64,000 nucleotides of DNA from a virus, in IMG/VR virus record IMGVR_UViG_3300020048_000056, positions 41,798 to 105,797 of that record; one strand, written 5' to 3'. The notes beneath the pieces were generated by a model, which was not told the DNA's origin, ran no database searches, and worked only from the letters and a program-made list of their open reading frames with translations. Each line of letters opens with the position of its first letter. Positions within the stretch are counted from its first letter, which is position 1. Shown piece after piece: positions 15,200 through 61,223 of this stretch. A program made the position numbers and the translations under genes.

Positions 15200-16744
15200 A
15201 TGGACATTAATAAGGCAAGTTGGTCTACAAATGACAATCATATTCGTCTTTCTATGCCAATTAATAAGATAGATAAGGAACGCAGAATCGTTACTGGTTT
15301 CGCTACTCTTGATAACCTTGATCGTCAAGGAGATGTTGTTCCAAAGGAAGCAAGCCTTAAGGCTTTTGAATCCTTTCGTGGAAACATTCGTGAGATGCAT
15401 CAGCCTATCGCTGTTGGCAAGGTAGTTTCTTTTAAGGAAGACACTTATTTTGATCCAGAATCAAAGAGTTTCTATAATGGCATTGTTGTTTCTGCATACG
15501 TTAGTAAAGGGGCACAGGATACTTGGGAAAAGGTTCTTGATGGAACTCTTACAGGATTCTCTATTGGTGGAGAGATTCATGACTCAGAAAATGTATTTGA
15601 TGAAGATATGGGTAAGACTTATCAAGTAATCAAAGAATATTCACTTAGTGAATTATCCTTGGTAGATAATCCAGCAAATCAATTTGCTAATGTATTTAGT
15701 ATCGAAAAGGGTATTGCTACTGGATACCTTTCAAAGACAGCAACTGAAAATGTTTATTGGTGCAGGAAGTGTGACATTGTAAAAATGTCTTCTGCATCAT
15801 CTTGCGTTTGCCCACAATGTGATGCATCAATGAATAGCATTGGTTTTGTTGAGAGCAATGACGCTGAAAAAGCAATGGTTGTTAAAACAATGGTTTCTGA
15901 AATAAAGAAAAGTGAAATTCAAAAGGGAATAGAAGTTGGTTCGTATGTCAAATCAAGTGACGGATATGCTCGTGTATCTGAGATAATCTTCCATGGTGGA
16001 GCAAGACTATCATCCCAAGAAGTAGCAATAATGGCGAAGTCAAGTGATCCAGTTGTTGTGCTTAAGGTATATTCACAAAATGACGGTACAATAGTACCTA
16101 CCAATCGTCGTATTGTTAAAAATATTTCTTCATTAGAAAAGATTAATACGATTAGTAAATCAGAGGAGGTAAGTAATATGAACTCAGACATTATCATTGT
16201 AGATGAGATTGAAAAGAGCATGAGTGAAGAGCAGGTTAATCCTCCAGAGGAGACTGCTATTCCCGTAACTGTAACAGATCACACAAATTCTGAAGCAGCA
16301 AAAGCAATCGAAGTCGAAATTGAAGAAGATGATTCAGAAGATTCTGCTGATGAAGCAGAGGACATGACTGAAGAAGATTCTATGGGAGAAGATATGAAAG
16401 AAGAGGTTGCCGTTAAAATGGATACACCTAGTGATGAAACTACCATGAAAATGGTTGGTGAAATTGCTGAGACTCTTTCAGCAACTCTCTCTACCCTTGC
16501 AGAAACAGTAAAGGCTCTTGATGCCAAGATTGAAGGCATTCATAAGTCAATTACTGGACTAAGTGGCGAGGTAGATGAAGTAAAAAATAGTTTTGGTAAG
16601 CGTGTCGATGCAGTCGAAAAAGACACCGCTTTCCGTAAATCTGCTGATCTTGGCGAGATCTTGCAGGAAGAACCAGTTATGGAGAAGTCAATGACTTCCA
16701 CATGGAACGGTCGTTTCCTCACAAATGCCGATCTATTTAACTAA
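15200..16744 (+). CDS. HK97-type prohead protease fused to Zn-ribbon, Tudor-like insert and acidic scaffold
   Basis: RIVTGFAT...DRQGD, REMH, GFSIGG, ELSLVDNPAN; CxxC..CxxC; acidic/coiled-coil C-terminus. Confidence 0.9.
   Translation: MDINKASWSTNDNHIRLSMPINKIDKERRIVTGFATLDNLDRQGDVVPKEASLKAFESFRGNIREMHQPIAVGKVVSFKEDTYFDPESKSFYNGIVVSAYVSKGAQDTWEKVLDGTLTGFSIGGEIHDSENVFDEDMGKTYQVIKEYSLSELSLVDNPANQFANVFSIEKGIATGYLSKTATENVYWCRKCDIVKMSSASSCVCPQCDASMNSIGFVESNDAEKAMVVKTMVSEIKKSEIQKGIEVGSYVKSSDGYARVSEIIFHGGARLSSQEVAIMAKSSDPVVVLKVYSQNDGTIVPTNRRIVKNISSLEKINTISKSEEVSNMNSDIIIVDEIEKSMSEEQVNPPEETAIPVTVTDHTNSEAAKAIEVEIEEDDSEDSADEAEDMTEEDSMGEDMKEEVAVKMDTPSDETTMKMVGEIAETLSATLSTLAETVKALDAKIEGIHKSITGLSGEVDEVKNSFGKRVDAVEKDTAFRKSADLGEILQEEPVMEKSMTSTWNGRFLTNADLFN
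16178..16744 (+). CDS. Putative nested scaffold protein (in-frame internal start)
   Basis: GGAGGT at 16165-16170, 7 nt, in-frame ATG 16178. Confidence 0.6.
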   Translation: MNSDIIIVDEIEKSMSEEQVNPPEETAIPVTVTDHTNSEAAKAIEVEIEEDDSEDSADEAEDMTEEDSMGEDMKEEVAVKMDTPSDETTMKMVGEIAETLSATLSTLAETVKALDAKIEGIHKSITGLSGEVDEVKNSFGKRVDAVEKDTAFRKSADLGEILQEEPVMEKSMTSTWNGRFLTNADLFN

Positions 16745-16778
16745 AATAACAGAAAGAAATTCAGGAGGTGAAAGTCAA

Positions 16779-17915
16779 ATGACAGAAATTATTAAGAATC
16801 AGCCATCCGATACTGGTGAATACGGCGATCCAAGTCCAGGTTTATACCAAGGACAGGGCGCAGTTGCCAACCTCGGAATTGGTGGAACAGAAGGCGTCAT
16901 GGGAGGCGATGCTTGGGGAACCCCAGGTAACATTCCTAACGCAAACTATGGAGATCTATCAGGACCAAACGCAGTTAATCCAACTGGCGTTCCTGGCGGT
17001 ATCCTCAACCCAGAGCAGGCTCGTCGTTTTATCGACTACGTTTGGGATGCAACAGTTCTCGCACAAGATGGTCGTAGAGTTACAATGCGTGCAAACACGA
17101 TTGAACTTGAGAAGGTCAATGTTGGAGAGCGCGTAATTCGTGCTGCAAATCAGGCACTTGGCGATTATGTCAATGCTGGTGCAACATTCACAAAGGTTGA
17201 GTTGACAACAAAGAAGATCCGTTTGGATTGGGAAGTTGCAACAGAGGCTCTTGAAGATAACATCGAAGGCTCAGCATTAGAGGATCACTTGGTCCGCTTG
17301 ATGACAAACGCATTCGGTAACGATCTTGAGGATCTTGCTATCAATGGCGATGGAGGTATTGATCCATTCCTAGGTATCATGAACGGCTTTGTTAATCAGG
17401 TCCAGTTCTCTGGCGATGCTCACGAAGCAGTTGTTGATGTTACAGGTGGATGGACCCCAGAGGTCATGCAAGAAATCATCTATGCACTTCCACGCAAGTA
17501 CCGTGCAATCAAGACTGGCCTAAAGTTCTATGCAGGTACAGATGTATTCGCAAACATCGTTAGAAATAACGGTACACTTGCAGATGCTATCTCTGAGGCA
17601 CTTATGCCACGAGTCAGCGGTACTCCAGGCCGTCGTGAGGATTACCTTTCAGGTGGTGCTCAGACATTTGGTGGCGCTCGCACAACTCGCGTTCTTGGTA
17701 TCGATGTTCAGGAAGTTCCTTACTACCCTGCGGACTTTGTAGATCTTACATTCCCACAGAACCGTGTATGGGGATTCCAACGCGATATCACAGTTAATCG
17801 TGAGTACAAGCCAAAGAAGGACACAATTGAGTACACAGTATTCGTCCGTTTTGGTCTTACTTGGGAAGAACTAGACGCAGTTGCTTATGCAGATACAAAC
17901 CCATTCACATCCTAA
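16779..17915 (+). CDS. Major capsid protein (HK97 fold)
   Basis: AGGAGGTG SD, ATG 16779; GGILNPEQARRFID, EALEDNIEG, EDLAINGD. Confidence 0.92.
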   Translation: MTEIIKNQPSDTGEYGDPSPGLYQGQGAVANLGIGGTEGVMGGDAWGTPGNIPNANYGDLSGPNAVNPTGVPGGILNPEQARRFIDYVWDATVLAQDGRRVTMRANTIELEKVNVGERVIRAANQALGDYVNAGATFTKVELTTKKIRLDWEVATEALEDNIEGSALEDHLVRLMTNAFGNDLEDLAINGDGGIDPFLGIMNGFVNQVQFSGDAHEAVVDVTGGWTPEVMQEIIYALPRKYRAIKTGLKFYAGTDVFANIVRNNGTLADAISEALMPRVSGTPGRREDYLSGGAQTFGGARTTRVLGIDVQEVPYYPADFVDLTFPQNRVWGFQRDITVNREYKPKKDTIEYTVFVRFGLTWEELDAVAYADTNPFTS

Positions 17916-17936
17916 TCAAGTGATGTGACTGTTTTT

Positions 17937-17964
17937 GGGGAGTAGCCTTTCGAGGTTGCTCCCC
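17937..17964 (+). terminator. Hairpin terminator after the capsid gene
   Basis: GGGGAGTAGCCT-TTCG-AGGTTGCTCCCC. Confidence 0.8.
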
Positions 17965-18008
17965 TTAAGCATATAATGATATAATTACAATAAGAAAAGG
18001 AGTTGCAC

Positions 18009-18443: not shown

Positions 18444-18446
18444 TAT

Positions 18447-22697: not shown

Positions 22698-25600
22698 ATG
22701 ACTGATGTTAATGCGAATATCAAAATCAATATTGATTCTTCTGCTGCGCTCGCAGGTTTAAGAAATCTTGAAACCAAGATAAACCAATTTCAACGAACAG
22801 TTGGATCAAGTGGCACGGCAGCGGCTGCAAGTCAGTCTGCCTACAACAAGGCTCTTCTTGACGGTATAAATAATACTGGATTATTCTCTGCAAAGCAAGT
22901 ATCATCTATTGACTCAATGGCTCGCTTTTCAAATGCATTAGATAAAAATAAACTAAGTCTTGGAGAATACTCAAGGTATGCTGCATCCCAACTTCCTGGG
23001 ATGAGCAAGATGTTCCGCAAAGAATTTGACACAATGCAGCAAGTTGCTGTATCAAGAGTTAAGACCATCAACACTCAGTATCTTGCTCTAGGAAAGACCG
23101 TAGACGGCGTTACAAAGGCTATCCAGTCAACTCCTACAGGTCTTTCTCAAGGTATGGCTACAAGCACTGCAATAGCCTCTCAGAAACAAATGATTTTTAA
23201 TAAATTAATTGATGATGGCTCCACTAAACTTTTGAACTGGGGTAAGAATACCCAATGGGCAGGCCGTCAGTTGATGGTAGGTTTAACACTTCCTTTGGCA
23301 GCAATGGGTACGGCAGCAGCAAAAGCCTTCATGGAAATTGATAAAGCATCTACAGCGTTAAAGAGGGTATATGGAGATCTAAGCACAACAACTGCTGAGA
23401 TCAATACTAACGTGGAGGCAGTTAAGACACTAGGTGCAGAATATACTAAATACGGCATTGCAGTTTCAGACACAATCACTGTTGCTGCAAAGGCAGCGGC
23501 AACGGGTGCCACTGGTCAAAAGTTAATGGACGTAACCAGACAGACTCTTAGATTTGCCACTTTGGGTCAGGTAGATTATAATGAGGCTTTAAGTACAACC
23601 ATTGCTATGCAGACAGCATTTGGAATATCTAATGAAGATCTTGGTAAAAGTGTAGATTACCTTAACGCAGTTGAGAACCAGACAATCCTAACTATCCAAG
23701 ACATGTCTCTTGCAATTCCAAGAGTTGCAACAGTTGTTAAGGGGTTGGGTGGAGATGTAGAAGATCTCGCAATCATGATGACTGCCATGAGAGAGGGTGG
23801 AGTAACTGCTGAGAACGCTGCTAACGGACTAAAGTCTGGTTTAGCATCTATGATTAACCCTACAAAACAAGCGTCTGAATACCTTGGTAAATTTGGAATT
23901 AATCTTAATGGAATTGTTGAGGGCAACTCAGGAGATCTCATTGGAACAGTAAAAGCCTTTGGCATAGAACTTAACAAGTTAAGCGACATGGATCGTCAGC
24001 GTGCCTTGGAAAAGACTTTTGGTAAATATCAATATGCAAGAATGTCTGCTCTATTTGACAACATGATTAAGAAAAATGGTCAGGCTGCCAGAGCAATGGA
24101 CCTAACTGGAATGTCTGCAAAAGATCTTGCAGCAATTGCAGATAAAGAACTTGGGACTATCTCTGAATCAGCAACAGTTAAATTTCAGGCAGCCCTAGAG
24201 AATCTTAAATTAACAATTGCTCCTTTAGGCGAGGCGTTCTTAAAGATTGCAACGCCAATTATGGGGGTAATCACTAAGATTGCAGAGGCATTTAATGCAC
24301 TCCCTGATCCAATTAAGAATGCAATGGGTATTGCAACAGTTGCTATTGCGGGTCTTGGTCCAATCCTATTAATGGGTATTGGTCTTATGGGTAACTTAAT
24401 AGCCAACGTAATTAAGGGTGTTCAGTGGTGGAGAAGACTCAGTGCAAGGATTAAGGGCAATGCTGCTGATTTTACTCATCTAAGCATGGCAGAACTTGAG
24501 GCTCAAGCAGCAACAAATGCCCTTGAAGGATCTACCACAAGTCTTACTGGAAAACTTCTTCTACAAAAGAGTGCAGTTAGCGCTCTTTCTGCGGAATATG
24601 AAAGATTCGCCAGTGTTGCAGGAATTGCTTCTGGAGCCATGGGTAGAGTTGGTGGCGGTGGAGGTAAGGCAATAGTAAGAAGATCTACTCCTAGAAAGAT
24701 GGCTACTGGTGGAATAGTTCCTGGTAGTGGTAATGGAGATACTATTCCTGCATTGTTAACTCCTGGTGAATCTGTAGTAACCAAGAAAGCAAGTCAAAAG
24801 TATGGACCCATTCTTGCAGCAATGAATGCTGGAACACTTTCTGGTTTTGCTAAGGGTGTAACATCTCTTGGTGGAGTCAATCTTCCAGAAGGCGCAATGG
24901 TCCGTTCTAATGCAAATACTCAAGCCATAGATAACTATATTCTAAAAACAAAGCAAGCAGCCTTGGCTATTGAAGATGAAACATTAAGAAAGAAGCAACT
25001 TGCAAAAATTGATGAAAAAATTATAGCATTATCTTCCAGAGAAAATGCAGATAAAAAAAGATATGCCATGTCTATGGGATCTATTGCTAAAGAATTAGAC
25101 ATGATTGTTCCACACCTAAAGGAAGTATCTGTATCTGCGGCTCACCTTACACAATCCAGAGGGATTAGCAAAAGTGGAATTGAATTTTTAGAGTCAAGGC
25201 CAGGAAAGAAAAAAGGATCTAAATCTCAGGTAGCACAAGGATATTTGGATATTGCTAATGATCCTACTTTAAGTAAGCATCTTAAAGAATATAGTGGACT
25301 TACTGCTAGTTTATCTCAAGGATTAAATACTCAATTACAAACTGGTGCAAAAGTGTCAGAATTTAATAAAGAATGGTCGCAAGAAGGAAGTAAACTTCTT
25401 CCATCTCTAAGGAAATTTGGTGGATATACTGCAACATCTGCTCAAGATACTCAAGCCCTAGGTGAATTTGAAAGACTTCTAGGTCAAAGAATTAATAATA
25501 ATGCAGAGGTTATACTAAATAAAACAGTTACAGATAAAATACTTGAAGCAGAAACAAAAGCCTTAATAGGTGAATATAAAAATGCTGGTGGAGCAATGGG

Positions 25601-28600
25601 AAGAGTTGCTATCGCTGCGAATACAGCATCAGAAACAGTTGCCCAAGTTGCTATTCAAATGAGTCTAGATGAAGCCAAAAGGCATAGTACTAGCGTTGTT
25701 ACTACAGAGAATGAGCGTCGTTATAAGAGAAATGGCGTTACTTTAGGAAGAGAAGACCTTAAAACTGGTAAGTTCCGACCAGAGAGATACGGAGAAGATC
25801 TTGCAAAATCTGCTGGAATAATGTCAGGTGGTACTGCTGCTAAGTCTCAAAGAGAAGCAATGGGGGTAAGAAGTCCTGGAAAAGAGGGAGAATATGTCTC
25901 TAAGATGAATGCTGAAGGACAACTTAAGGGAGCAAAAGAAAATGCTAAAGTATCTGCTGAGGCAGGAGCAGTTGCTGGAAAAGCACAAAAAACTGCTTTA
26001 AGAGAGGCAGCGGTTCTTACTCCTCAAGAACAATATAGGCTTGCTCAAGGACAACAGCGTCAAGAAGAAAAACAAATAAATCAAATTGCAGCAAAAAGAC
26101 AATCCATGGTTGCTACTCAAAGAACTGCTCCAATGCAAGGTAAAGATACTCATCGACTCCGCGCATCCTTAATTAATAAGATTCAAGCGACATCTGATGA
26201 AGATATTCTTGTATTAATTAAACAAGAGCAAAGTACAAGAATTGCTGAAGAAAAAACAGCATCTACTCAAAGAAGAGAAATTAGAGCAAAATCTGATAGA
26301 GAAATTGCCTTAGCAAGAAATACAGAGGCAGCAGATGATGTTAGAGTAGCAACAGCAAGAAGGCAAGCAAATCATGCACAAGCCATGAGGACCATGGACA
26401 ATATTGCTCTTCAAGCAGGGGCTGGTGCCGCATATGATATAGGCACAGAAACTCAAATCCAAGGTGGAGGACAAGCAATAAAGACTCAGCCTAAAACAAA
26501 AACTCGAAGAAATATGACTGGAGGTATTAGGAAGGCTGGTGGTGTCTTGGGTATGGCATCGATGATTCCCTTTATGGCTCAAAATCAAGAGGGAAAGTTT
26601 ATGGGCATGGATGCAAATATGCTAGGAATGGGCATGATGGGTGGAAGTATGGCAGCAGAACTTCTTCCTTCCATTCTTCCAAAGATTCTCCCAATGTTAT
26701 TAAGTCCAGTAGGAATTGCTGCTGCTGCTTTTGCTGGCCTTGGCGTTGCAGCAGCAATTATGACAAATAAAATGAATGAGTCTATCAAGAAAACTCAAGA
26801 ATATACAGACGCCGCATCTGGATCTGCGAATGCTATGACAAATATGGCAAAAGCATTAAATAAGCAAAGTATTCTGTCTAGAGGGCAATCAAAAGCCCCA
26901 AATATTTCAGGACTCACTGCAAAACAATTATCTTATGGACAAGATTATTTAGCATCAGAGCAAGGTAAAGGATTGCAACAAACTATTGGACAACTTTCTG
27001 GAGCAGATAGACAACAAAGTCTTAAGGCACAAATGATACAAGGAGTAGCAGCAGGCTTTATAACTCAAAAGCAAGCAAAATCCATTACAATTGCCGTATC
27101 TAAAGCGTTGGGAGATCCACTTCTAGGTTCTTCTGTCGTTGCATCGATAAGTCAAGCATTCGTAAAAGATGGAGACAAACTTAGAAACACATTGGCTACC
27201 ATATTTGCTGATACTATTCCTGATTACAAGTCAGATCCATTAGTTCAAAAGGCTGAAGAGGCATTTAAGAAATATCAGAATGATCTTGAAGCACAGAAAA
27301 AGGCTTTAGCAGCAGAATCGGCTCCTGGAGGAATTCCTTCTGATGCAACAAATGCTCCAGAACTTGCATTAACACAAGAAGAAGTTGCGGGAGCCTTTCA
27401 AAAATCTGCAACAGCAGGAATTAAGTTTAGAGAAGCGTTGGTTCTTCTAAAAGAAAGTTTTGATTCTGGACAAATTGGTCAAAAGAAATTTGAAAAGGGG
27501 CAGAAGGATCTACAGTCAAAGATTGATGAAACTACTAATGGAATTTTCTTGCTTTCAGATTCCGTAAGTAATGATAAATTAGGCGGCTATTTCTTAAACT
27601 TTGCAATGTCTATGGGGAAAACAGAAGAGCAGTTCAAGGCTACAGAAGATAATATTAAGGATATTACTAAGGCCATAGAAGTTTTTGACAGAGAAGACCA
27701 AGTGAAAGTTGAAACATTACTTAAAATATCCTATACTAGTGGAAGCCTTACCGAAGAAGATATTAGTAACCTTAGGACAAACCTAAATTCCCTTCCAGAA
27801 GAACAATCAACAAGATATGAAATGCTCTTAAATAAAGAGCAGTGGACTCCAGAAGCAGTTAAGTTAATTAATTACCTAGTTAGCCTTCCTGATGAATTCG
27901 AAAAGAAGGGTACACTTGTTGCTGAAACACTTGGAATCCAAGCCGCTAATGACTGGATGACAGCCATGAGTGCAATTCAAATATTAAGTCCAAAAAAGAT
28001 AGTAGTACTTGAGGCACTAATTGGGGGATCAGGACAAGCGGGACTTGAAACTGCTGCAAAGTATTTTGCATATCTTTCTGCCATTCCAAAAAGCCAAAGA
28101 AAAGAGTTTATTCTAGAAGTTAAAAAAATAATAACTACAGAGAATCAGGCTTCTTATGGTACAGGATCGCTCCTTCTTGGAACTCCTGAGAAAAGAGCCG
28201 CAGGTATGGCAGCAGACTCAGCAGCCGCTGAAAAAGAAGTTGCCGCTGCTAAGGCAAAACTAGATGCTCAAGCAAAGGCAGCATTAGATGCATTAGGTGG
28301 AGGCGGCGGTGGCGGCGGAGGAGGCGGCGGCGGCGGTGGTGGATCTGCAACAACAAACGCATTAACAGAGATGAATAAGGGTTTCATAGAACAAATTAAG
28401 ATGTATACAAACATGGACGCAAACCTTAAACTTCTTAATGGAAAGCGTCAAGATTTTGTTAAAAATCTAACTAAAGGCCAAGGAATTATTACTAAGTTAA
28501 GAGCCTTAGGATTATCAGAAGGTATCATAACAGATCTTGCAGCACAAGGATTTGGTGCATTGAAAAATGCCTATACTAAATATCAAGGCAAAGGTAAGGC

Positions 28601-30590
28601 AAATGCTATTGTGAACCAGAACCAACTTGGCATACAGACATCATTCGCAAAAACTATTGCAGATAATAGATCTGCAAACATAGTGGGAAGAACTAGAACA
28701 GCAGCAGCAGGAAAACTTCAGGGTACAGGTCTTACTGCTGACCAGATTTCAACTATGCTAGAAGATCCAAAAATAGCATATGGAATAGAAAATGTTGGTA
28801 AAAAGAGTGGATATACTCAAAGTCAATTAGATAAATTAGTAAACTCTATGAAGATTACAGGAAAGGTTTCTGATCAAGTAGCACGAGCAACAGATCCTCT
28901 TACAGCAGCATTCGATGATATGTCCAGTGCAGTTGAATTAGCAAATACTCAAATTGCTGCACAGAATGCCCTAAAGGAAGAGGCTAGCAATCAAGCATTC
29001 CTTCTTGATACTGGAATATCAAAAGCAACAGCAGAATTACAGATGGCTCAAACTGATCAACAGATTAAGGATATTCAAAAGGTTATTGACGAAAAGCAAA
29101 GATCTAATGATTTAGATCAACATAGTATTGATATGCTAGAGCGTAGCAAGAAGCAGTGGAATGATAATATTCAATTCCTTCAAGATAAAATTGATTTATC
29201 ACAAAAGTCAGTTGATGTTTATCAAAGAGAAAACGATTTAAGAGATCAGCAGTCTAACGTTATCAATCATAGTCTTGATCAAATGTCAATTAAAGAAACA
29301 GCAATCAACAAAGCCTATGATGACAGAATTAAGGCTTTAGATCAGGTTTCTTCAATTAACCAACACATCTTGGATCAGCAATCAGGTCAATTGAATATGG
29401 CTCAAGCATTAAGTTCTGGAGATATTTATGCTGCTGCTCAAGCACAACAAGAAATGCAGAATCAGAGTTATCAATATGCTCAGGAACAATTACGATCAAG
29501 CATGGAAGTAGGAAAGAATAATGCTATTGCTGGGCTTACAACTGAAGGTGGATTAACAAGAGTCCAAGCAGAAAAGCAAATTGCAGATTTTAAAGAACAA
29601 AGTTACCAAAATGATCTTCTTGTCACTAAATTACAGAATGAGATTTATGCAACGACTCAATTAATGATTCCAAATAAAGAAGAAATTGCTAAGATTGATA
29701 AGAGTATTGCAGGATATACCCAAACTATTTCAGATAGAAATGACAATATCTATCTACTTCAAACAAATAGCATTGCTCCTCTAACTCAAGCAAACGCTTT
29801 AATACAAGAAAAATTAGATAAGAGCGCATTATCATTACGGGCTCAAGAAGCAGAAAGTAATTGGAATGGAAGAAATCAAGAGCAATGGGATAGCATTGGA
29901 AAGATAACTTCTGCCGTTGGATTAGCAATCATCGCTCAAAGAGATGCAAGTGATGAAACATTGACATCAGTTACAAATCTAGCAAATGCTTGGAAAAATG
30001 TAGGCGTTAGTGCTGCTGCTGCACTAGATGCTACAAAGAGTGGAAAATTTGTTGCGCCAGAACTCACAGTTGTAAAGCCTTCAGATAAGCAAACAAAGGC
30101 TGTTGATTGGGCTGAATTAATAAAGAATGTCCCAGTATTAGAGGCGCTTGGAGTTGATCCATCACTAATAGCAGAAATGACTGCTGGATCTGCAACACAA
30201 AATAGATATGCTGGTGGATCTATTCGTAAATATGCATCAGGCAACTTTGTCAAGGGTTCAGGCGGTATGGATTCAGTATCAACTAGGCTAACCCCTGGAG
30301 AATATGTGATTAGAAAGTCAATGGTAAACAAGTATGGTCCTGCAATGTTTGATCAGATTAACCAAGGCTCATTCTCTATGCCAAAATACAACATGAATTC
30401 TGGAAGGAATACAGGAACCATGCAGGCTGCTCCACCTTCTACAAACATCTCTGCCCCAGTGTATAATACATATAGCGTTACAGTTCCTGTAACATATCCT
30501 GGTGCATCTGCTAATGACATTGCCAATCAGGTTATGACAAGAATCAAAAACGTTGACAATAGTTCAATTAGGAGAATCAATGGATATTAA
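22698..30590 (+). CDS. Tape measure protein
   Basis: 2630 aa, Ala-rich and helical; TP901-like core region; hydrophobic segments; follows the chaperones. Confidence 0.93.
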   Translation: MTDVNANIKINIDSSAALAGLRNLETKINQFQRTVGSSGTAAAASQSAYNKALLDGINNTGLFSAKQVSSIDSMARFSNALDKNKLSLGEYSRYAASQLPGMSKMFRKEFDTMQQVAVSRVKTINTQYLALGKTVDGVTKAIQSTPTGLSQGMATSTAIASQKQMIFNKLIDDGSTKLLNWGKNTQWAGRQLMVGLTLPLAAMGTAAAKAFMEIDKASTALKRVYGDLSTTTAEINTNVEAVKTLGAEYTKYGIAVSDTITVAAKAAATGATGQKLMDVTRQTLRFATLGQVDYNEALSTTIAMQTAFGISNEDLGKSVDYLNAVENQTILTIQDMSLAIPRVATVVKGLGGDVEDLAIMMTAMREGGVTAENAANGLKSGLASMINPTKQASEYLGKFGINLNGIVEGNSGDLIGTVKAFGIELNKLSDMDRQRALEKTFGKYQYARMSALFDNMIKKNGQAARAMDLTGMSAKDLAAIADKELGTISESATVKFQAALENLKLTIAPLGEAFLKIATPIMGVITKIAEAFNALPDPIKNAMGIATVAIAGLGPILLMGIGLMGNLIANVIKGVQWWRRLSARIKGNAADFTHLSMAELEAQAATNALEGSTTSLTGKLLLQKSAVSALSAEYERFASVAGIASGAMGRVGGGGGKAIVRRSTPRKMATGGIVPGSGNGDTIPALLTPGESVVTKKASQKYGPILAAMNAGTLSGFAKGVTSLGGVNLPEGAMVRSNANTQAIDNYILKTKQAALAIEDETLRKKQLAKIDEKIIALSSRENADKKRYAMSMGSIAKELDMIVPHLKEVSVSAAHLTQSRGISKSGIEFLESRPGKKKGSKSQVAQGYLDIANDPTLSKHLKEYSGLTASLSQGLNTQLQTGAKVSEFNKEWSQEGSKLLPSLRKFGGYTATSAQDTQALGEFERLLGQRINNNAEVILNKTVTDKILEAETKALIGEYKNAGGAMGRVAIAANTASETVAQVAIQMSLDEAKRHSTSVVTTENERRYKRNGVTLGREDLKTGKFRPERYGEDLAKSAGIMSGGTAAKSQREAMGVRSPGKEGEYVSKMNAEGQLKGAKENAKVSAEAGAVAGKAQKTALREAAVLTPQEQYRLAQGQQRQEEKQINQIAAKRQSMVATQRTAPMQGKDTHRLRASLINKIQATSDEDILVLIKQEQSTRIAEEKTASTQRREIRAKSDREIALARNTEAADDVRVATARRQANHAQAMRTMDNIALQAGAGAAYDIGTETQIQGGGQAIKTQPKTKTRRNMTGGIRKAGGVLGMASMIPFMAQNQEGKFMGMDANMLGMGMMGGSMAAELLPSILPKILPMLLSPVGIAAAAFAGLGVAAAIMTNKMNESIKKTQEYTDAASGSANAMTNMAKALNKQSILSRGQSKAPNISGLTAKQLSYGQDYLASEQGKGLQQTIGQLSGADRQQSLKAQMIQGVAAGFITQKQAKSITIAVSKALGDPLLGSSVVASISQAFVKDGDKLRNTLATIFADTIPDYKSDPLVQKAEEAFKKYQNDLEAQKKALAAESAPGGIPSDATNAPELALTQEEVAGAFQKSATAGIKFREALVLLKESFDSGQIGQKKFEKGQKDLQSKIDETTNGIFLLSDSVSNDKLGGYFLNFAMSMGKTEEQFKATEDNIKDITKAIEVFDREDQVKVETLLKISYTSGSLTEEDISNLRTNLNSLPEEQSTRYEMLLNKEQWTPEAVKLINYLVSLPDEFEKKGTLVAETLGIQAANDWMTAMSAIQILSPKKIVVLEALIGGSGQAGLETAAKYFAYLSAIPKSQRKEFILEVKKIITTENQASYGTGSLLLGTPEKRAAGMAADSAAAEKEVAAAKAKLDAQAKAALDALGGGGGGGGGGGGGGGGSATTNALTEMNKGFIEQIKMYTNMDANLKLLNGKRQDFVKNLTKGQGIITKLRALGLSEGIITDLAAQGFGALKNAYTKYQGKGKANAIVNQNQLGIQTSFAKTIADNRSANIVGRTRTAAAGKLQGTGLTADQISTMLEDPKIAYGIENVGKKSGYTQSQLDKLVNSMKITGKVSDQVARATDPLTAAFDDMSSAVELANTQIAAQNALKEEASNQAFLLDTGISKATAELQMAQTDQQIKDIQKVIDEKQRSNDLDQHSIDMLERSKKQWNDNIQFLQDKIDLSQKSVDVYQRENDLRDQQSNVINHSLDQMSIKETAINKAYDDRIKALDQVSSINQHILDQQSGQLNMAQALSSGDIYAAAQAQQEMQNQSYQYAQEQLRSSMEVGKNNAIAGLTTEGGLTRVQAEKQIADFKEQSYQNDLLVTKLQNEIYATTQLMIPNKEEIAKIDKSIAGYTQTISDRNDNIYLLQTNSIAPLTQANALIQEKLDKSALSLRAQEAESNWNGRNQEQWDSIGKITSAVGLAIIAQRDASDETLTSVTNLANAWKNVGVSAAAALDATKSGKFVAPELTVVKPSDKQTKAVDWAELIKNVPVLEALGVDPSLIAEMTAGSATQNRYAGGSIRKYASGNFVKGSGGMDSVSTRLTPGEYVIRKSMVNKYGPAMFDQINQGSFSMPKYNMNSGRNTGTMQAAPPSTNISAPVYNTYSVTVPVTYPGASANDIANQVMTRIKNVDNSSIRRINGY

Positions 30591-53059: not shown

Positions 53060-53584
53060 ATGAGCGAAATAGTAGATCACATTGAAGAAGTCAATAGAGT
53101 TGCATCAGAGTACATTAAGGGGTCTAATGAGTCTGAAATATCTAAGCAACTGGATATCCCACGAGCAAGAGTCTCATCTCTTCTTAGAGAGTGGAAGAGC
53201 ATGGCAAGCAATTCAGAGGCTGTCAGAGCACGAGCGCGTGAGGCTCTATCAGGAGCAGATCAACACTATTCTAAACTCATCAAGCAAGCATATGAAGTTA
53301 TCGATGAAGCAACTTTTAACAGCAACCTATCTGCAAAGACTGCTGCAATTAAACTCATCCTTGATATAGAATCTAAGCGTATTGATATGCTTCAAAAGGC
53401 GGGACTCCTAGAAAATAAGGAACTTGCAGATCAGTTACTAGAAACAGAACGTAAGCAGGAACTGTTGATGAAGGTTCTTGTTGAAGTGTCAGGGTCATGT
53501 GCGGTATGTAAGCCCAAGGTTCTTAAGCGCCTAGCAGAGGTTTCTGGTCCCAATGGAGAAGCCGTGGTTATCAATGGCGATTGA
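53060..53584 (+). CDS. terS: Terminase small subunit
   Basis: N-terminal HTH, helical body, overlaps TerL; TGCTATAAT at 53042-53050. Confidence 0.75.
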   Translation: MSEIVDHIEEVNRVASEYIKGSNESEISKQLDIPRARVSSLLREWKSMASNSEAVRARAREALSGADQHYSKLIKQAYEVIDEATFNSNLSAKTAAIKLILDIESKRIDMLQKAGLLENKELADQLLETERKQELLMKVLVEVSGSCAVCKPKVLKRLAEVSGPNGEAVVINGD

Positions 53585-55361
53585 TCTCTCTGATTTTCTT
53601 GGGGCACTTGATGATTCCCCATTTGAAGAAGTTCCCGTAGACTTAGATACCTTTCTTCATGATGTGAACTACCTAGATCAGCCAGAACTGTCACAGATTC
53701 AGCGTGACCTTGTAGAGGCTATGAGTCAGATCTATAAAGAAGAAGATCTGATTAGATTCATGGGCGATAAAGAAGGCCATGATCACTACAAGAAGTATAC
53801 TAAGGCAGAGGTTATCCTCCAGTTGGGCAAGGGATCAGGTAAGGATCATACCTCTACCATTGGTTGCGCTTACCTAGTATACAAACTCTTATGTCTAAAA
53901 GACCCTGCACGCTACTTTGGTAAGCCTCCTGGTGACGCTATTGATATTATTAACGTTGCAATCAATGCACAGCAGGCAAAGAACGTCTTCTTCAAGGGAT
54001 TTAAGAATAAGATTACTCGCTCTCCTTGGTTTGCAGGGAAGTTTGATGCAAAGGCAGATAGTATTGAGTTTGATAAGGCTATAACCGTTTACTCAGGTCA
54101 CTCAGAACGAGAGAGTCATGAGGGACTTAACCTTATTCTAGCAATCCTTGATGAGATCTCAGGATTTGCCCAAGACTCTGCATCTGGAAATGAAGGTGCT
54201 AAGACTGGTGATGCTATCTACAAGGCATTCCGCGCCTCTGTAGATTCACGATTCCCAGACTTTGGCAAGGTCGTCCTTCTTTCATTCCCCCGTTATCCAG
54301 GAGACTTTATCTCCAAGCGTTATGACGAGGTTGTTGCTGAAAAGGATATTGAGCAGAAGTCTCATACATTTATTATTAATCCAGATCTTCCTGATACTGG
54401 AGTAGACAATCAGTTCACTATTGAGTGGACTGAGGATCACATCTTGTCTTATAAATATCCTGGGGTATATGCAATTAAGCGTCCTACATGGGAAGCAAAT
54501 CCTACACGATCTATTGAAGACTTTAAGATTTCATTCATGTCAGATTATGGAGATGCCATGCAGAGATTTGCTTGTATGCCATCCTTCATGTCAGATGCAT
54601 TCTTTAAGCAAAAGGATAAACTAGAACATGCTATGCGTTCAAGGAATCCTGTAGATAACTTCAAGAGACTTGATGAATCATTTAAGCCATTACCAGATGT
54701 TCGATACTACATGCACGCTGACCTTGCCCAAAAGCATGATAAGTGTGCCATTGCCATAGCCCACGTTGACAAGTGGGTACAAGTAAGAACATTTAACGAC
54801 TATACTCAGATACATCCATTAGTAATTGTTGATGCAATTATTTGGTGGGAGCCACATAAGGAAGGACCAGTAGATCTTTCAGAAGTAAAGAACTGGATCG
54901 TCAACTTCCGTAGGGATGGATTTAAGATTGGTCTATGCACCTTTGACCGTTGGAATTCATTTGACATTCAGCAGGAACTTAAGAGTGTAAATATTCCCAC
55001 AGACACACTCTCTGTAGCAAAGAAGCATTATGAGGATCTTGCAATGCTTATCTATGAAGATCGCGTCATCATGCCCCACATTGATATTCTTCTTGAAGAG
55101 ATGAGTCAATTGCGTATTGTGTCTGACAAGAAGGTCGATCATCCTCGTAAAGGATCTAAGGATCTCTCAGATGCCGTGACGGGTGCCGTCTATAACGCTA
55201 TTGCTCACACTCCTCGCAATGCTAATCAAGAGATTAGTATCCATGACTGGACTTCTGTTACTAAGAAGAATGAAGCAGAAGAATCATTAAACAATATCAT
55301 AAAGTATCCAGAAATGCCAAGGGACATAAAAGACTTCCTTGACTCATTCACCGTTCTTTGA
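53574..55361 (+). CDS. terL: Terminase large subunit
   Basis: LGKGSGKD Walker A, ILDEISGF Walker B, HADLA..HD, FDRWNS, VDHP...SKD..DA. Confidence 0.93.
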   Translation: MAIDLSDFLGALDDSPFEEVPVDLDTFLHDVNYLDQPELSQIQRDLVEAMSQIYKEEDLIRFMGDKEGHDHYKKYTKAEVILQLGKGSGKDHTSTIGCAYLVYKLLCLKDPARYFGKPPGDAIDIINVAINAQQAKNVFFKGFKNKITRSPWFAGKFDAKADSIEFDKAITVYSGHSERESHEGLNLILAILDEISGFAQDSASGNEGAKTGDAIYKAFRASVDSRFPDFGKVVLLSFPRYPGDFISKRYDEVVAEKDIEQKSHTFIINPDLPDTGVDNQFTIEWTEDHILSYKYPGVYAIKRPTWEANPTRSIEDFKISFMSDYGDAMQRFACMPSFMSDAFFKQKDKLEHAMRSRNPVDNFKRLDESFKPLPDVRYYMHADLAQKHDKCAIAIAHVDKWVQVRTFNDYTQIHPLVIVDAIIWWEPHKEGPVDLSEVKNWIVNFRRDGFKIGLCTFDRWNSFDIQQELKSVNIPTDTLSVAKKHYEDLAMLIYEDRVIMPHIDILLEEMSQLRIVSDKKVDHPRKGSKDLSDAVTGAVYNAIAHTPRNANQEISIHDWTSVTKKNEAEESLNNIIKYPEMPRDIKDFLDSFTVL

Positions 55362-55689: not shown

Positions 55690-55890
55690 ATGCCTTGGAA
55701 TATTCAAAGAGCAGGATCTAAGTACGAAGTTGTAAATAGTGAAACAGGGAGAGTCGTAGGGACTCATCCATCAAGGGCTAATGCCCAAGAACAACTTGCA
55801 GCACTAAACGCTAACGTACATGAGTCTGATAAGGCAGCGCAGCCTGTACGAAGCACTTGGCAAGGACAGTTTTTCCCAAGAAGGGGGTAG
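55690..55890 (+). CDS. Small protein with C-terminal STWQGQF motif (probable head-internal protein)
   Basis: MPW.I......Y.VV...TG.VVG.H.S...A..QL.AL.AN domain; AGGAG SD. Confidence 0.75.
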   Translation: MPWNIQRAGSKYEVVNSETGRVVGTHPSRANAQEQLAALNANVHESDKAAQPVRSTWQGQFFPRRG

Positions 55891-56552: not shown

Positions 56553-56915
56553 ATGGTGCTTAGCAATACAGCCAAGGCATATCTTAGTGTTGCCAGATAT
56601 TGTGCAACAAAGTCTACAGCCAGAAATACTCATGGTGCTGTAGTTGTACGCGGTGGTAGCGTACTTGGAACAGGTTACAATAAGGATCGTAACCATCCAC
56701 GATTGGTTTCTCCTGAGCATATTAAAACAGATTGCAGCACTCATGCTGAGCAAGTTGCAATTCGTGATGCTGGGGAGGATAATGTAAAGGGTGCAATTAT
56801 TTATGTTGCACGAGTAAACCGTGAAGGTAAAGATAGAGATAGTAAGCCTTGTTCCCGCTGTAGTGCTCTTATTGAGCGAGTTGGAATCAAGCGTGTTGTC
56901 TTTACATCTCAATAG
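56553..56915 (+). CDS. dCMP/cytidine deaminase
   Basis: HGAVVV..G.N, HAEQVAI, PCSRC. Confidence 0.88.
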   Translation: MVLSNTAKAYLSVARYCATKSTARNTHGAVVVRGGSVLGTGYNKDRNHPRLVSPEHIKTDCSTHAEQVAIRDAGEDNVKGAIIYVARVNREGKDRDSKPCSRCSALIERVGIKRVVFTSQ

Positions 56916-56925
56916 GAGAATGAAA

Positions 56926-57156
56926 ATGCTAGTAGTTAATCAGGACGAAATGGAACAGATTATTCAATCCCGTGAGGATCTTGAGTGGGATGGATGGGAT
57001 GTCGTCAAGTATACGAATAGTAGCAATGCCATTTATGCTAGTGATGGAGTATTCCATCAGGGTAGATGGGTAAGGAAAAAGGTCTTCCCTATCACTCCAG
57101 AGGGATGGTATCTTCCAAATACGATAGGGAGAATCCATGCACGGGTGGAAGGATAA
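56926..57156 (+). CDS. Hypothetical protein
   Basis: AGGAG SD; L.WDGWDVV motif. Confidence 0.65.
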   Translation: MLVVNQDEMEQIIQSREDLEWDGWDVVKYTNSSNAIYASDGVFHQGRWVRKKVFPITPEGWYLPNTIGRIHARVEG

Positions 57157-57418
57157 AGGAGAATGTCTAGGAATGGACACAGGCTTATTCTTTGATACAT
57201 ATGAAGAAGAACCTAATGTCGCAAAGGCTGTAGATCACATTTGTCAGAGATGTCCTGTAAACCAAGAATGCTTTGCTTGGGGGATATCCAAGAAAGAATG
57301 GGGAGTCTGGGGCGGCGTTTACCTTAAAGATGGTAAAATTGATAAAGAGTTCAACGCTCATAAAACCAAGGATGATTGGTATACTGCGTGGGAGTCATTA
57401 ACAATGGAGAAAGAATGA
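57137..57418 (+). CDS. whiB: WhiB-family Fe-S transcription factor
   Basis: C...FF...C..CPV..EC...GVWGG. Confidence 0.92.
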   Translation: MHGWKDKGECLGMDTGLFFDTYEEEPNVAKAVDHICQRCPVNQECFAWGISKKEWGVWGGVYLKDGKIDKEFNAHKTKDDWYTAWESLTMEKE

Positions 57419-57669
57419 TATACACACCAGATGTAAGTTCAGCCATTAGGAGTATTCCTATGCCTGTAGAAATGTCAGTAGATATTGCTGACTATGGAAA
57501 CTATCTGGGTATCAGGTTCTACGAAAGTGAGTGGAAACATCTTTCAGAGGGGGAACGATTAAAAATGATTAGATATTTTCAAGAAATAAAGGCTATGCTT
57601 AGCCTTGGTGGAGTAGATTCTACTTTAGATCCAATCTATGATCAGATAGGAGTGCAGAAACTAGGATGA
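57415..57669 (+). CDS. Hypothetical protein
   Basis: ATGA coupling. Confidence 0.6.
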   Translation: MIYTPDVSSAIRSIPMPVEMSVDIADYGNYLGIRFYESEWKHLSEGERLKMIRYFQEIKAMLSLGGVDSTLDPIYDQIGVQKLG

Positions 57670-58706
57670 GCATCTTTATCTCTATTGCCTCTTATCGTGA
57701 TCAGGAATTAGTGAAGACTCTAAGTAGTATAATTAATAATGCTGATAACCCGCAAGATCTTTCATTTGGTGTAGTAGATCAAAATGAAAGAAATAAATGG
57801 GTAGACCTATCCTCTATTCCAAATCTAAAGCATATGAAAGTTCACTTTAAAGATGCTAAGGGTGCGGGGTATGCAAGGAAACTAGCAACAGAATTATATG
57901 ATGGAGAAGACTTCTTCTTTCAAACAGATTCTCATATGAGATTTGCTAAGGGGTGGGATACTAAACTAATCGAAATGTACGATTGGTGTAGTAAAGATGC
58001 TGGAACGGATAAAGTCATCCTTAGCCAGTTCCCAGCCCCCTTTGAAGTCCTCACAGACAACTCAGATTATTATTTAAAAAATGATAAGTATTTCTGGGAT
58101 GGTCCTTCATGGACAAGCGTTGTGAATACACACTATGGTGCTTGGGCAGGCAATAGAGAAAAGATTGCAGATATGTCTATGCCTCATAAATCCCATACCG
58201 TCTTGGGAGCCTTAATGTTCTCTCGTGGACAGATTGCACTTGACATTCCCTATGACGAGCGTATATCATTTATGGGAGAAGAGTTATGTTATGCTATTCG
58301 TGCTTACACGAGGGGATACAAGATGTATGCTCCTAATGAAATGCTAGCATGGCATTTCTATAAGCGAACTAATCGACCTAAAGTTTGGGGAGATAAGAAA
58401 ATAGAATGGTTTAATATTGAGAAATATTCCAAGGAAACACAAAAAAGTGTTCTTCTTGGAGAGGACAATGGTATTTATGGTATTGGAGATTATGAAAAGT
58501 ATCTAGAGTATCAGAAAATGATCGGCATTAATTTTAAAGAATTTTATTCAGTTGAACCAGAGCAAAGAATAGATTTAGATTTTGTATCAGAAGAATTATC
58601 TTTTAATTTTGATGAACCAGAATTGCAGTCTGGCCACTGTCTAGCAAACCAGCACAAGACTTGCCGTGTAGACGCATGTGCATGTAAATGTCACGAGGAG
58701 GAATAA
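57666..58706 (+). CDS. GlcNAc-transferase (GT60/Skp1-type) glycosyltransferase
   Basis: IFISIASYRD.EL, KGAGYAR, QTDSHMRF..GWD, F.GEE...AIRAYT.G, WHFY.R. Confidence 0.85.
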   Translation: MSIFISIASYRDQELVKTLSSIINNADNPQDLSFGVVDQNERNKWVDLSSIPNLKHMKVHFKDAKGAGYARKLATELYDGEDFFFQTDSHMRFAKGWDTKLIEMYDWCSKDAGTDKVILSQFPAPFEVLTDNSDYYLKNDKYFWDGPSWTSVVNTHYGAWAGNREKIADMSMPHKSHTVLGALMFSRGQIALDIPYDERISFMGEELCYAIRAYTRGYKMYAPNEMLAWHFYKRTNRPKVWGDKKIEWFNIEKYSKETQKSVLLGEDNGIYGIGDYEKYLEYQKMIGINFKEFYSVEPEQRIDLDFVSEELSFNFDEPELQSGHCLANQHKTCRVDACACKCHEEE

Positions 58707-58876
58707 TGTCAGAAAAAGATGAAAAGATTCTACGAGATCTAACAATCGCTTCCGCAGCAGTTCGTAAAGGTCTAGGTGGGAAAACTGGAGATGGTGCTGA
58801 GAAGACATACGGTATTGCCTATGCTAAGGCTGTACAAGCAGGACTGAAGCCAAGATTGAAGAAGCGGTATCGGTGA
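58706..58876 (+). CDS. Small basic protein
   Basis: GAGGAGG SD; ends PRLKKRYR. Confidence 0.65.
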   Translation: MSEKDEKILRDLTIASAAVRKGLGGKTGDGAEKTYGIAYAKAVQAGLKPRLKKRYR

Positions 58877-59502
58877 CCCAACAAATCGTTATACCTTGGA
58901 GAGATATAGATTGTGTATATCGTAGAAAGCATTTTGACTTTCTTGTAGAGTATTATTCTCAAGAATTTGATATTATTCTGGGGGATAATGAAGGGGATTT
59001 CAATCGTTCTGCTGCAAGAAATACTGGAGTAAGTGAAAGCACCTCAGAGGTTGTAGTAATCTTAGATGCAGATAACTATGTTCCATTACAACAAATTCAC
59101 TCAGCAATTAACTTAGCAACAGAAAAAGATATCCTTGCAAAGCCATTCACTTGGTTTGGATATCTTACAGAAGACTCTACAGATAAGTTTTATGAGTTCT
59201 ATGGAATTATAGATGTAGAGCCAGAATTCCTAAACCCACAGCAACAAAACTTTACTGGAGGGGTTTACGTTATGAAGAAATCTCTTTGGCAAGAGATTGG
59301 TGGCATGGACGAGGGATTTATTGGTTGGGGTGCAGAAGATGATGCATTCCACTTACATTGTAAGAATAAGGGAATTAAGACAGAATATGTAGAAGGATAT
59401 GATTACCATTTATATCATCCTGCATATAGAGTAACATCAGATTTTAATTATAAAAAACTAATGAAGGAGTACGCTCATGGGGACAAGTCATCCAGAAAGT
59501 AG
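58873..59502 (+). CDS. Glycosyltransferase (GT2/GT7 galactosyltransferase-like)
   Basis: IVIPWR, FNRSAARN.G, LDAD, GGMDEGFIGWGAEDD, HLYH. Confidence 0.85.
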   Translation: MTQQIVIPWRDIDCVYRRKHFDFLVEYYSQEFDIILGDNEGDFNRSAARNTGVSESTSEVVVILDADNYVPLQQIHSAINLATEKDILAKPFTWFGYLTEDSTDKFYEFYGIIDVEPEFLNPQQQNFTGGVYVMKKSLWQEIGGMDEGFIGWGAEDDAFHLHCKNKGIKTEYVEGYDYHLYHPAYRVTSDFNYKKLMKEYAHGDKSSRK

Positions 59503-59989
59503 ACCTTGGATTTTAGAAAAGATTAATGAGGCAGGAATCCAAAGCATTCTTGATGTTGGTGCTGGCTCAGGGACTTATTCAGATGCATTTTCTGAAGCAG
59601 GAATGTCATTTGAGATTCTTAATGCTATTGAAGTTTGGCAACCATATATTGAAGAGTTCAAACTAAAGAACAAATATAATTTTGTCTATGAGGGGGATGT
59701 AAGGGATCACGATCATTTCTTCTATGACCTAATCATCTTTGGAGATATCCTAGAGCACATGTCAGTGAGTGACGCCCTAGAGGTATGGAACAAGGTTAGC
59801 AAGCAAGCAGACTATGCTGTAATCTCTATTCCAATTATTCATTATCATCAAGGCGAAATTAACGGTAATCCTTACGAGAGACACGTTAAGGATGACTGGT
59901 CACATGAAGAAGTATTGCTAACATTTCCTGGAATTGTGGACTGTTGGCAAGGAGAAGTTGTCGGTGCGTACTGGGCTAAATTTCGATAA
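59477..59989 (+). CDS. Class I SAM-dependent methyltransferase
   Basis: ILDVGAGSG, YDLIIFGDILEHM. Confidence 0.88.
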   Translation: MGTSHPESRPWILEKINEAGIQSILDVGAGSGTYSDAFSEAGMSFEILNAIEVWQPYIEEFKLKNKYNFVYEGDVRDHDHFFYDLIIFGDILEHMSVSDALEVWNKVSKQADYAVISIPIIHYHQGEINGNPYERHVKDDWSHEEVLLTFPGIVDCWQGEVVGAYWAKFR

Positions 59990-60006
59990 GGTGGTATAAT
60001 TTTTCT

Positions 60007-60447
60007 ATGAATAGTGAATTAGTCAGTGCTCTCAAGGTAGTCCTTGCAGATCACTACGCAGTATATTTTAAGGCTCAGGGATATCACTGGAATGTCGAAG
60101 GTGTTGACTTTGCAGAATATCATGGGCTCTTTGCAAATGTATACGATGATTCTTTGGGGGCAGTCGATTCAATTGCGGAGAATATTCGCAAACTCCAATC
60201 TTATGCTCCATTCAAGATGACTCGTTTTTCTGAACTTACAACAGTTGCAGAAACTGAGGTAGGCCCAGATGTTAAGTCAATGACCGCAGATTTACTTATT
60301 GCTGTTGAGACTAGCATTCGATCTACCAATGCCGCTTTTGCTCTCGCAAACGGTATGGCCATGGAACCAGGTATCGCTAACGATCTTGCTGCGCGTGATG
60401 GATGCTTGAAGAAGTGGGCATGGCAACTACGAGCATCACTCTCATAG
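60007..60447 (+). CDS. dps: Dps/ferritin-like protein
   Basis: YHWNV.G..F..YH..F...Y...D.IAE.IR; KWAWQLRAS; leaderless TGGTATAAT at 59992-60000. Confidence 0.88.
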   Translation: MNSELVSALKVVLADHYAVYFKAQGYHWNVEGVDFAEYHGLFANVYDDSLGAVDSIAENIRKLQSYAPFKMTRFSELTTVAETEVGPDVKSMTADLLIAVETSIRSTNAAFALANGMAMEPGIANDLAARDGCLKKWAWQLRASLS

Positions 60448-60451
60448 ACTG

Positions 60452-60658
60452 ATGTACGTTGCTAAGTTTTCTAGGATAGGTATTCTTTGGGATGTCAAGA
60501 TTTTCGATAAGTCTTGGTCCAATGAAATGCTTTCTCATGAAATTAAGGAACTAGACTCTAAAAGATTCTTATTCCATTCCAGCGGGTATCGTTGGATAAA
60601 CAAGCAGGTAGTTAAACAACTATTTATACAACACAAGATGGAGATTATTAATGGATGA
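60452..60658 (+). CDS. Hypothetical protein
   Basis: ORF within the operon. Confidence 0.5.
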   Translation: MYVAKFSRIGILWDVKIFDKSWSNEMLSHEIKELDSKRFLFHSSGYRWINKQVVKQLFIQHKMEIING

Positions 60659-60812
60659 GTCAGGTATTTTAAGTCAAACACTGGGCGCTACATTACAAAG
60701 ACAGTCAAAGTTATTTCAAAATTATGAAACTGAAATAGCAAACCTTACAGTAGAAATCTTTAGGCTTAATGAGCAAGTTAAAGCATTAAGTGCTGAAGAT
60801 ACTGCTGAGTAA
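60651..60812 (+). CDS. Small coiled-coil protein (not in the ORF track)
   Basis: GGAG SD; MDESGILSQTLGATLQRQSKLFQNYETEIANLTVEIFRLNEQVKALSAEDTAE*. Confidence 0.6.
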   Translation: MDESGILSQTLGATLQRQSKLFQNYETEIANLTVEIFRLNEQVKALSAEDTAE

Positions 60813-60833
60813 TAAGTCATGATAGAATGAAGT

Positions 60834-61223
60834 ATGGCAGTTATTGTAGACATTGATGGGACATTACTTGCTTATGGGAATAAGCCAATTAAAAGAGTCA
60901 TCGATCATGTAAATTCCTTAGGAACAGTATACATCGTTACTGCTCGTCCAGAATCAAGACGGGCTGATACGGTAAGATCTCTGAGGGATGCAGGCATAAA
61001 ATACAATAGATTGTTAATGAATTCTGTTGGACCAACACATAAAGATGGTGTTGAGTCAAAGCGTCGTCACGCTAAAGATTTAAGTGGAGTTACAGAAGCA
61101 ATTGATAATGATGCAGACGTTCGTAGGATGTATCAGCAGGAAGGGATCAAAGCGACAAATCCTTCCTCAATTGGAAAGTCAATTTGGCAGGGGGCATTTA
61201 TTAAAAATGTCACCAGACCTTAA
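60834..61223 (+). CDS. HAD-family phosphatase (PNK 3'-phosphatase-like) with C-terminal SIWQGAF motif
   Basis: DIDGT, VTARP, K, IDND HAD motifs I-IV. Confidence 0.82.
   Translation: MAVIVDIDGTLLAYGNKPIKRVIDHVNSLGTVYIVTARPESRRADTVRSLRDAGIKYNRLLMNSVGPTHKDGVESKRRHAKDLSGVTEAIDNDADVRRMYQQEGIKATNPSSIGKSIWQGAFIKNVTRP

Follow-up and report, generated by a model that had tools for sequence, protein, structure and literature searches.

Why should several unrelated proteins of one phage end in the same few residues that close its protease-scaffold? The question is raised by a stretch of 64,000 nucleotides (hereafter the window, meaning the whole stretch of DNA that was analyzed), which forms the final 64 kb, positions 41,798 to 105,797, of the complete 105,797-bp virus record IMGVR_UViG_3300020048_000056, which has direct terminal repeats and a G+C content of 40%. 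Four proteins of this genome carry the same short terminal peptide: a prohead protease-scaffold fusion, a 66-amino-acid (aa) protein, a predicted HAD-superfamily phosphatase and, outside the window, an 88-aa protein with a D-G-S-F-P-I motif (hereafter DGSFPI). As read from the aligned sequences, the core of this tail, or tag, is K-x(1-4)-W-x-G-x-[F/I/L]. We consider it probable that this portable tail brings the proteins that carry it to the docking site of the scaffold tail, most likely on the capsid protein inside the procapsid. Nearly all genes of the window lie on the plus strand, and the gene calls are simple longest-open-reading-frame (ORF) calls.

A terminal peptide shared by the scaffold and unrelated proteins

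The tagged proteins encoded in the window, and the regions that hold their tags, are as follows.

15200-16744, plus strand: prohead protease-scaffold fusion of 514 aa (P0001); Pfam Peptidase_S78 and S78_2 above cut-off, phrog_9427 at 4e-115
16685-16741, plus strand: scaffold tail with the tag; invariant Lys496, W502-x-G504-R-F-L and D511-L512 in an alignment of 16 scaffolds
55690-55890, plus strand: 66-aa tagged protein (P0002, family B), made of an N-terminal domain of ~45 aa, a short linker and the tag; phrog_3684 at 4e-9
55831-55887, plus strand: tag region of P0002, from Lys48 via W57-x-G59-x-F61 to the C-terminus, by translation and alignment
60834-61223, plus strand: predicted HAD-superfamily phosphatase of 129 aa with the tag appended (P0003, family D); Pfam Acid_phosphat_B (PF03767) at 29 bits against a cut-off of 27
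61176-61220, plus strand: tag region of the HAD protein, from Lys115 via W118-x-G120-x-F122 to the C-terminus, by alignment of 33 homologues

An earlier note on this DNA had reported that three proteins end in one motif, and the translations bear this out: the motif lies at 16697-16717, 55852-55872 and 61179-61199, respectively 8, 5 and 7 residues before the stops. The lysine that it placed ahead of the motif is also present, 2-5 residues before the tryptophan in most tails and 9 in the 66-aa protein. Apart from the motif, the three bearers show no kinship by their Pfam and PHROG matches, which identify an S78 protease-scaffold, a DUF2188-like/phrog_3684 protein and a HAD phosphatase. In a six-frame scan, no long plus-strand ORF of the window had W-x-G-x-F anywhere but at these three C-terminal sites, and the whole 105,797-bp genome adds two occurrences, one internal and one N-terminal in the 88-aa protein outside the window. 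The proteome total of 5 compares with 1.6 expected from composition. Three of the five fall within a C-terminal zone comprising 6% of positions (binomial p = 0.002), and three C-terminal hits were reached in 0 of 2000 per-protein shuffles; on these statistics, we reject a chance origin of the terminal motif. When this genome was pooled with three relatives, 14 of 16 occurrences were C-terminal, at a p of 1.5e-16 that is inflated by the non-independence of orthologues. The C-terminal enrichment that the earlier note had expected is thus present both here and among relatives.

The scaffold protein follows the layout of S78 protease-scaffold fusions, with a Peptidase_S78 domain, then a helical scaffold region, and a gene placed between portal and capsid. 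Its AlphaFold2 model runs from the S78 protease (residues ~1-172) through a Zn ribbon (182-218), an Hva1_TUDOR-like beta domain (244-312), an acidic disordered region (317-411) and a long helix (412-482) to the conserved tail. Across the 16 aligned scaffolds, which come from aquatic relatives, no stretch beyond the protease domain is better conserved than this tail, and all 16 keep the lysine, W-x-G-R-F-L and D-L. The scaffold tail reads W-G-G-[RH]-F-L in the Streptomyces phages Wakanda and Jay2Jay, and F-x-G-x-F stands at the matching position in the Rhodococcus phages Trina and NiceHouse. In the monomer model, the last 30 residues, which follow a 70-residue helix, have predicted local distance difference test (pLDDT) values below 50; these low values neither support nor oppose a fold-back of the tail onto the protease. 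The region inserted upstream varies widely among relatives, some lacking an insert, others having one or two TUDOR-like domains and others again a DUF5824-like domain; here, the insert is the TUDOR-like beta domain (window 15929-16135), between the protease and the acidic region. The Zn ribbon (window 15743-15853) has four cysteines and a weak DUF7129 match, and E-K-S-like sites recur within the scaffold.

In family B, to which the 66-aa protein belongs, all 13 further homologues (4 genomic and 9 from databases, the two sets overlapping) keep W-x-G-x-F-F-P-[RK], with W57, G59, F61, F62 and P63 invariant in the alignment, and the linker between domain and tail ranges from ~10 to 70 aa. An ESM Atlas search with the 66-aa protein returned only unnamed viral clusters, some of them portal-linked, which we treat as a lead only.

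The HAD protein is a predicted HAD-superfamily phosphatase by its above-cut-off Pfam match and its catalytic D-x-D-x-T motif at residues 6-10, whose D6, D8 and T10 do not vary among 33 homologues; it also matches PHROG polynucleotide kinase/phosphatase families, and a search of solved structures with it gave nothing useful. Within the tail, K115 and W118 are 100% conserved across the 33 homologues, down to 46% identity, as are the catalytic aspartates, with linker positions 27-73% conserved and the residues past F122 variable or missing. Where HAD and DGSFPI domains are fused, the tag stands solely at the end of the whole polypeptide, indicating that the tail tracks the polypeptide terminus and no particular domain. 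This placement, the variable linkers and the AlphaFold confidence below 50 uphold the view of the earlier note that the tail lies outside the folded domains. The conservation of the tail in scaffolds, family B and HAD proteins in turn indicates that it is under purifying selection. In a co-variation test, one variant cargo tail ends in G-P-x-N-W-K-I, yet the scaffold tail of that phage is canonical; hence, only the K-x-x-W-x-G-x-hydrophobic core is common to cargo and scaffold.

Tagged families in relatives and domain exchange with the scaffold

To establish how far the tag extends, we draw on whole related contigs: G001-G003, G004, the sister phages G006-G010 (~90 kb) and G011. Related whole contigs each carry 2-4 tagged proteins besides the scaffold (the more divergent G004 is taken up below), and across the clade the tag is found on at least six domain families. 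Its carriers include families B, C, D and E, a TUDOR-like protein and multidomain proteins of 356-517 aa, and it always stands at a polypeptide terminus. In G006-G010, the scaffolds have the same tail as the scaffold of this phage, and the tag ends both the 356-517-aa multidomain proteins, which combine B-like, TUDOR-like, DUF5824/5872-like and DGSFPI domains, and a neighboring 123-145-aa protein (family E); G009 also has it on a 274-aa protein with a Pfam Hva1_TUDOR domain. As a separate observation, a conserved [E/D]-K-R-[D/E]-[F/Y]-[S/N] junction precedes every DGSFPI domain in the multidomain tagged proteins of relatives, and could be an inter-domain processing site of the prohead protease.

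Family C comprises proteins of ~90 aa with the DGSFPI motif, and in G001-G003 the tail lies 6 residues from the C-terminus. The orthologue of this genome is the 88-aa protein, encoded at positions 2984-3250 of the complete genome (1501-1767 of the separate locus L050), 38.5 kb before the window start; it has no C-terminal tail and carries the motif at residues 5-9 instead. The N-terminal form recurs in at least 6 further database homologues of family C and the C-terminal form in ~20, with distant homologues having neither, and these two forms suggest that the tag is usable at either terminus. Among IMG/VR DGSFPI loci, 60 of 80 have the C-terminal tail. The 88-aa gene begins 7 nt past a TATAAT box, a spacing that suggests a leaderless message, and lies just downstream of tRNA-Leu and tRNA-Asn genes; the gene call of one source begins at Met8, so that the tag would be missed. 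AlphaFold2 gives the 88-aa protein a confident helical core (residues 22-85) and a low-confidence N-terminal tag region, where 10-residue blocks average 50 and 47. The low pLDDT of the DGSFPI and scaffold tags fits a flexible terminal peptide that would become ordered only on a partner. A Foldseek search with the DGSFPI model found no PDB match, and its BFVD matches were uncharacterized homologues only. For the DGSFPI domain itself (~60 aa, often repeated), 5789 cluster representatives were counted at E <= 0.001, and Pfam has no family for it; this widespread phage domain, hitherto undescribed, probably belongs to the capsid interior.

The domains of tagged proteins are also found within scaffolds. 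Among 78 long homologues, DGSFPI shares a polypeptide with Peptidase_S78 or S78_2 in ~10 and with Phage_capsid in 1, often lying ~45 residues past the S-L-V-D-R-P-A-N strand that closes the protease domain; in the same set, it co-occurs with NUDIX, ferritin-like, ChaB, Hva1_TUDOR and DUF5872 domains. The beta domain of the scaffold analyzed here (residues 244-312) shows homology to TUDOR-like domains that separate tagged proteins of G007 and G009 carry (BLASTP 1e-6 and 1e-5, respectively), and the scaffolds of G007-G009 are without a TUDOR-like insert. The 746-aa protease-scaffold of G011 has both Peptidase_S78 and Hva1_TUDOR above cut-off, and its residues 265-547 are colinear with residues 71-401 of a separate tagged protein of G007 (BLASTP E = 1e-19). 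The same blocks being embedded in some scaffolds and free but tagged elsewhere, accessory domains are covalently part of the scaffold in some phages, and in others are free proteins that keep the scaffold tail. The simplest reading of these sequences is that the tail stands in for covalent attachment, bringing the free protein where the scaffold goes, and the domain interchange is the strongest indirect evidence that the comparisons offer for an addressing role.

Head genes and a proposed address role

The proposed role has to be seen against the head genes of this phage and its relatives, for which the remaining features of the window are these.

13533-15161, plus strand: portal protein gene; from the ORF list, with matches under annotated portal genes of Streptomyces phages and by synteny
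16779-17915, plus strand: major capsid protein of the HK97 fold, 378 aa; Pfam Phage_capsid above cut-off, phrog_1623 at 1.6e-69
53553-55361, plus strand: terminase large subunit; phrog_17415 at 3.8e-13; followed by one small ORF and then the 66-aa tagged gene

The head module reads portal, small ORF, 514-aa protease-scaffold and capsid protein, an order that is the same in the Streptomyces and Rhodococcus relatives. The nearest cultured relatives are Stanwilliamsviridae phages of Streptomyces and Trinavirus phages of Rhodococcus, at ~45-55% protein identity, and uncultured IMG/VR contigs are closer, with scaffold identities of 57-77%. The ATG at 16779, which is preceded by an AGGAGG site, is the likely start of the capsid gene by its sequence, and the start given in the ORF list (16725), which overlaps the scaffold gene, is probably wrong. 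The capsid protein begins with an N-terminal extension of ~75 aa (window 16779-17000) that is rich in glycine and proline and poorly conserved except for a lysine at position 6 and a few glycines; the extension may be a propeptide cut off by the protease. Some 36 kb separate the terminase large subunit gene from the portal, protease and capsid genes upstream of it, an arrangement shared with Streptomyces phage Wakanda. The genome thus has genes for a portal, an S78 protease-scaffold and a terminase, and tail genes as well. The two large tail genes, one for 2630 aa (window 22698-30590), a candidate tape measure protein by position and size, and one for 1795 aa (window 31236-36623), imply an unusually long tail. 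Between the two tagged genes downstream (window 56553-59502) lie a dCMP deaminase gene and two glycosyltransferase-like genes, which may have functions in DNA or cell-surface modification.

In the mechanism that we propose, the K-x(1-4)-W-x-G-x-[F/I/L] tail would be the capsid-interior-binding end of the protease-scaffold, reused by this clade as a terminal address peptide. A polypeptide ending, or in one family beginning, with the tag would be recruited during procapsid assembly to the docking site of the scaffold tail, for which the likeliest place is the inner face, or the N-arm, of the HK97-fold capsid protein, and would be enclosed in the prohead. That the tail binds the capsid protein is inferred from scaffold biology and by analogy with 80alpha and CpmB, discussed below. 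The S78 protease would then cut at the invariant upstream lysine, freeing the domains; the E-K-S sites in the scaffold and the E-K-R junctions before DGSFPI domains hint weakly at such cleavage. More speculatively, the freed proteins would be retained in the head and pass into the host together with the DNA.

That the tagged proteins are delivered cargo is a tentative idea, and on balance a doubtful one. The same caution applies to its fuller form, in which siphovirus-type phages would use a tag of ~8 residues, copied from the scaffold and placed at either terminus, to load enzymes and small effector domains into the head, from which these would be delivered along with the DNA; the enzyme so delivered would be the HAD phosphatase here and, through the DGSFPI module, NUDIX and ferritin-like proteins elsewhere.

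Several observations weigh against the reading of the tail as a cargo address. Whole-genome scans for tagged cargo in Wakanda, Trina and NiceHouse, cultured relatives from soil, found the motif on the scaffold only, so that any cargo use would be clade-specific, and the more divergent relative G004, which is 67% complete, showed no tagged cargo. The cargo tails diverge from the scaffold tail beyond W-x-G-x-F and might bind more weakly or elsewhere. Furthermore, 39-44 kb lie between the tagged genes and the head genes, and the tagged clade is known from uncultured genomes alone.

Other explanations of the shared tail have to be weighed with these points in mind. Entry into the procapsid by means of the tag need not end in delivery: the tagged proteins might be auxiliary modules of the scaffold or core that have become detached, help assembly and then leave with the scaffold by degradation or expulsion, much as the scaffolds of protease-containing phages are normally digested and lost. 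The presence of their TUDOR-like, DUF5824/5872-like and DGSFPI domains within the scaffolds of related phages is in keeping with such a role, which is harder to reconcile with a tag on the HAD phosphatase, an enzyme without an obvious scaffolding role, or with the NUDIX and ferritin-like enzymes fused to DGSFPI elsewhere; we regard this explanation as unlikely. The docking partner could instead be something other than the capsid, be it the portal, the protease domain or a host chaperone, with co-localization with the scaffold achieved by another route or outside the capsid. Scaffold-portal contacts do occur in other phages, and the portal-linked clusters among the ESM Atlas neighbors of the 66-aa protein give a lead in this direction, but where it has been studied the extreme C-terminus of a scaffold binds capsid protein (PMC5644958), and we give a partner of this kind only a small chance.

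Least probable by far is a tail with no addressing role at all, serving as a degradation or stability signal or persisting as a remnant of recombination with the scaffold gene. Short terminal peptides can serve as degrons, and the genes of these phages are highly mosaic; however, the complete conservation of the lysine and tryptophan of the HAD tail down to 46% identity, and the survival of the motif through domain reshuffling, in which it always shifts to the polypeptide terminus, argue strongly against both versions, which also leave unexplained why the tail should be the most conserved part of the scaffold itself outside the protease domain.

Two resemblances to known short motifs were also rejected. 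In WXG100/type VII secretion proteins, WXG is central in a helical hairpin of ~100 aa, and the scaffold is not secreted; beta-clamp-binding and SSB-tail-like motifs have a different consensus and would be useless to a scaffold.

Irrespective of delivery, the analysis shows an evolutionary exchange of modules between the scaffold and proteins predicted to be packaged. If the address reading is correct, a sequence rule would predict proteins inside the virions of a large group of uncultured phages, and such virion proteins would act first in the newly infected cell, making them, for example, candidate anti-defense or takeover factors. It would also provide a very short natural handle for packaging foreign proteins in HK97-fold capsids, and a phage counterpart of encapsulin cargo loading.

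Comparison with known head-targeting and cargo-loading systems

Terminal capsid-targeting peptides are established for the internal proteins of T4 and for DarB of P1 (PMC9024508). The likeness to these systems, including T4 Alt, lies in a short terminal peptide that is common to several unrelated proteins of one phage, as found here, and that addresses them to the head, as we propose here. The T4 peptide acts through the scaffold core and is removed by the prohead protease. The T4 and P1 signals are N-terminal, belong to myoviruses and are not copies of the capsid-binding end of the scaffold itself; in contrast, the tag described here is mostly C-terminal, being N-terminal only in one DGSFPI subfamily, shares its core exactly with the scaffold tail and belongs to siphovirus-type phages whose S78 protease is fused to the scaffold, and its role is a predicted one.

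A closer parallel in terms of origin is offered by 80alpha, in which the scaffold binds the capsid protein through its final 16-21 residues, and by CpmB of SaPI1, which has a copy of that motif and attaches to the same site (PMC5644958). As in this 'helix-and-hook' system, the extreme C-terminal motif of the scaffold recurs here on non-scaffold proteins. However, CpmB is encoded by a satellite and acts as a competing scaffold that alters capsid size, not as a phage-encoded cargo, and its motif, RIIK in an amphipathic helix, has no sequence kinship with K-x-x-W-x-G-x-F. In HK97, Duda, Oh and Hendrix (2013, cited in PMC12749128) reportedly found that a C-terminal region carries the S78-family protease into the prohead and can carry a foreign protein along. 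That signal serves the protease alone, its foreign use having been engineered, whereas here natural accessory proteins have the tail.

The earlier note had likened the arrangement to encapsulins, in which unrelated enzymes bear short C-terminal peptides on flexible linkers and are enclosed by an HK97-fold shell. The shell fold is shared, as the Pfam Phage_capsid match above cut-off indicates, and the analogy holds. It goes no further: encapsulins consist of the shell only, without scaffold, protease, portal or DNA, and their peptides follow another consensus with no evident homology to this one. Since the motif differs and portal, protease and scaffold mark a true phage, the likeness remains one of analogy only.

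For polyvalent phage proteins, packaging has been predicted from MuF/portal fusions and genome context (PMC5512222), and a search of that source by terms turned up neither this tail nor the combinations of DGSFPI, TUDOR-like and ChaB domains. Our literature searches found no description of the motif or of tagged cargo in Stanwilliamsviridae-like phages. With head-addressing peptides known from T4 and P1, and mimicry of a scaffold tail known from CpmB, the principle of addressing proteins to the head by short terminal peptides is already established, and the tail described here is a new variant of it.

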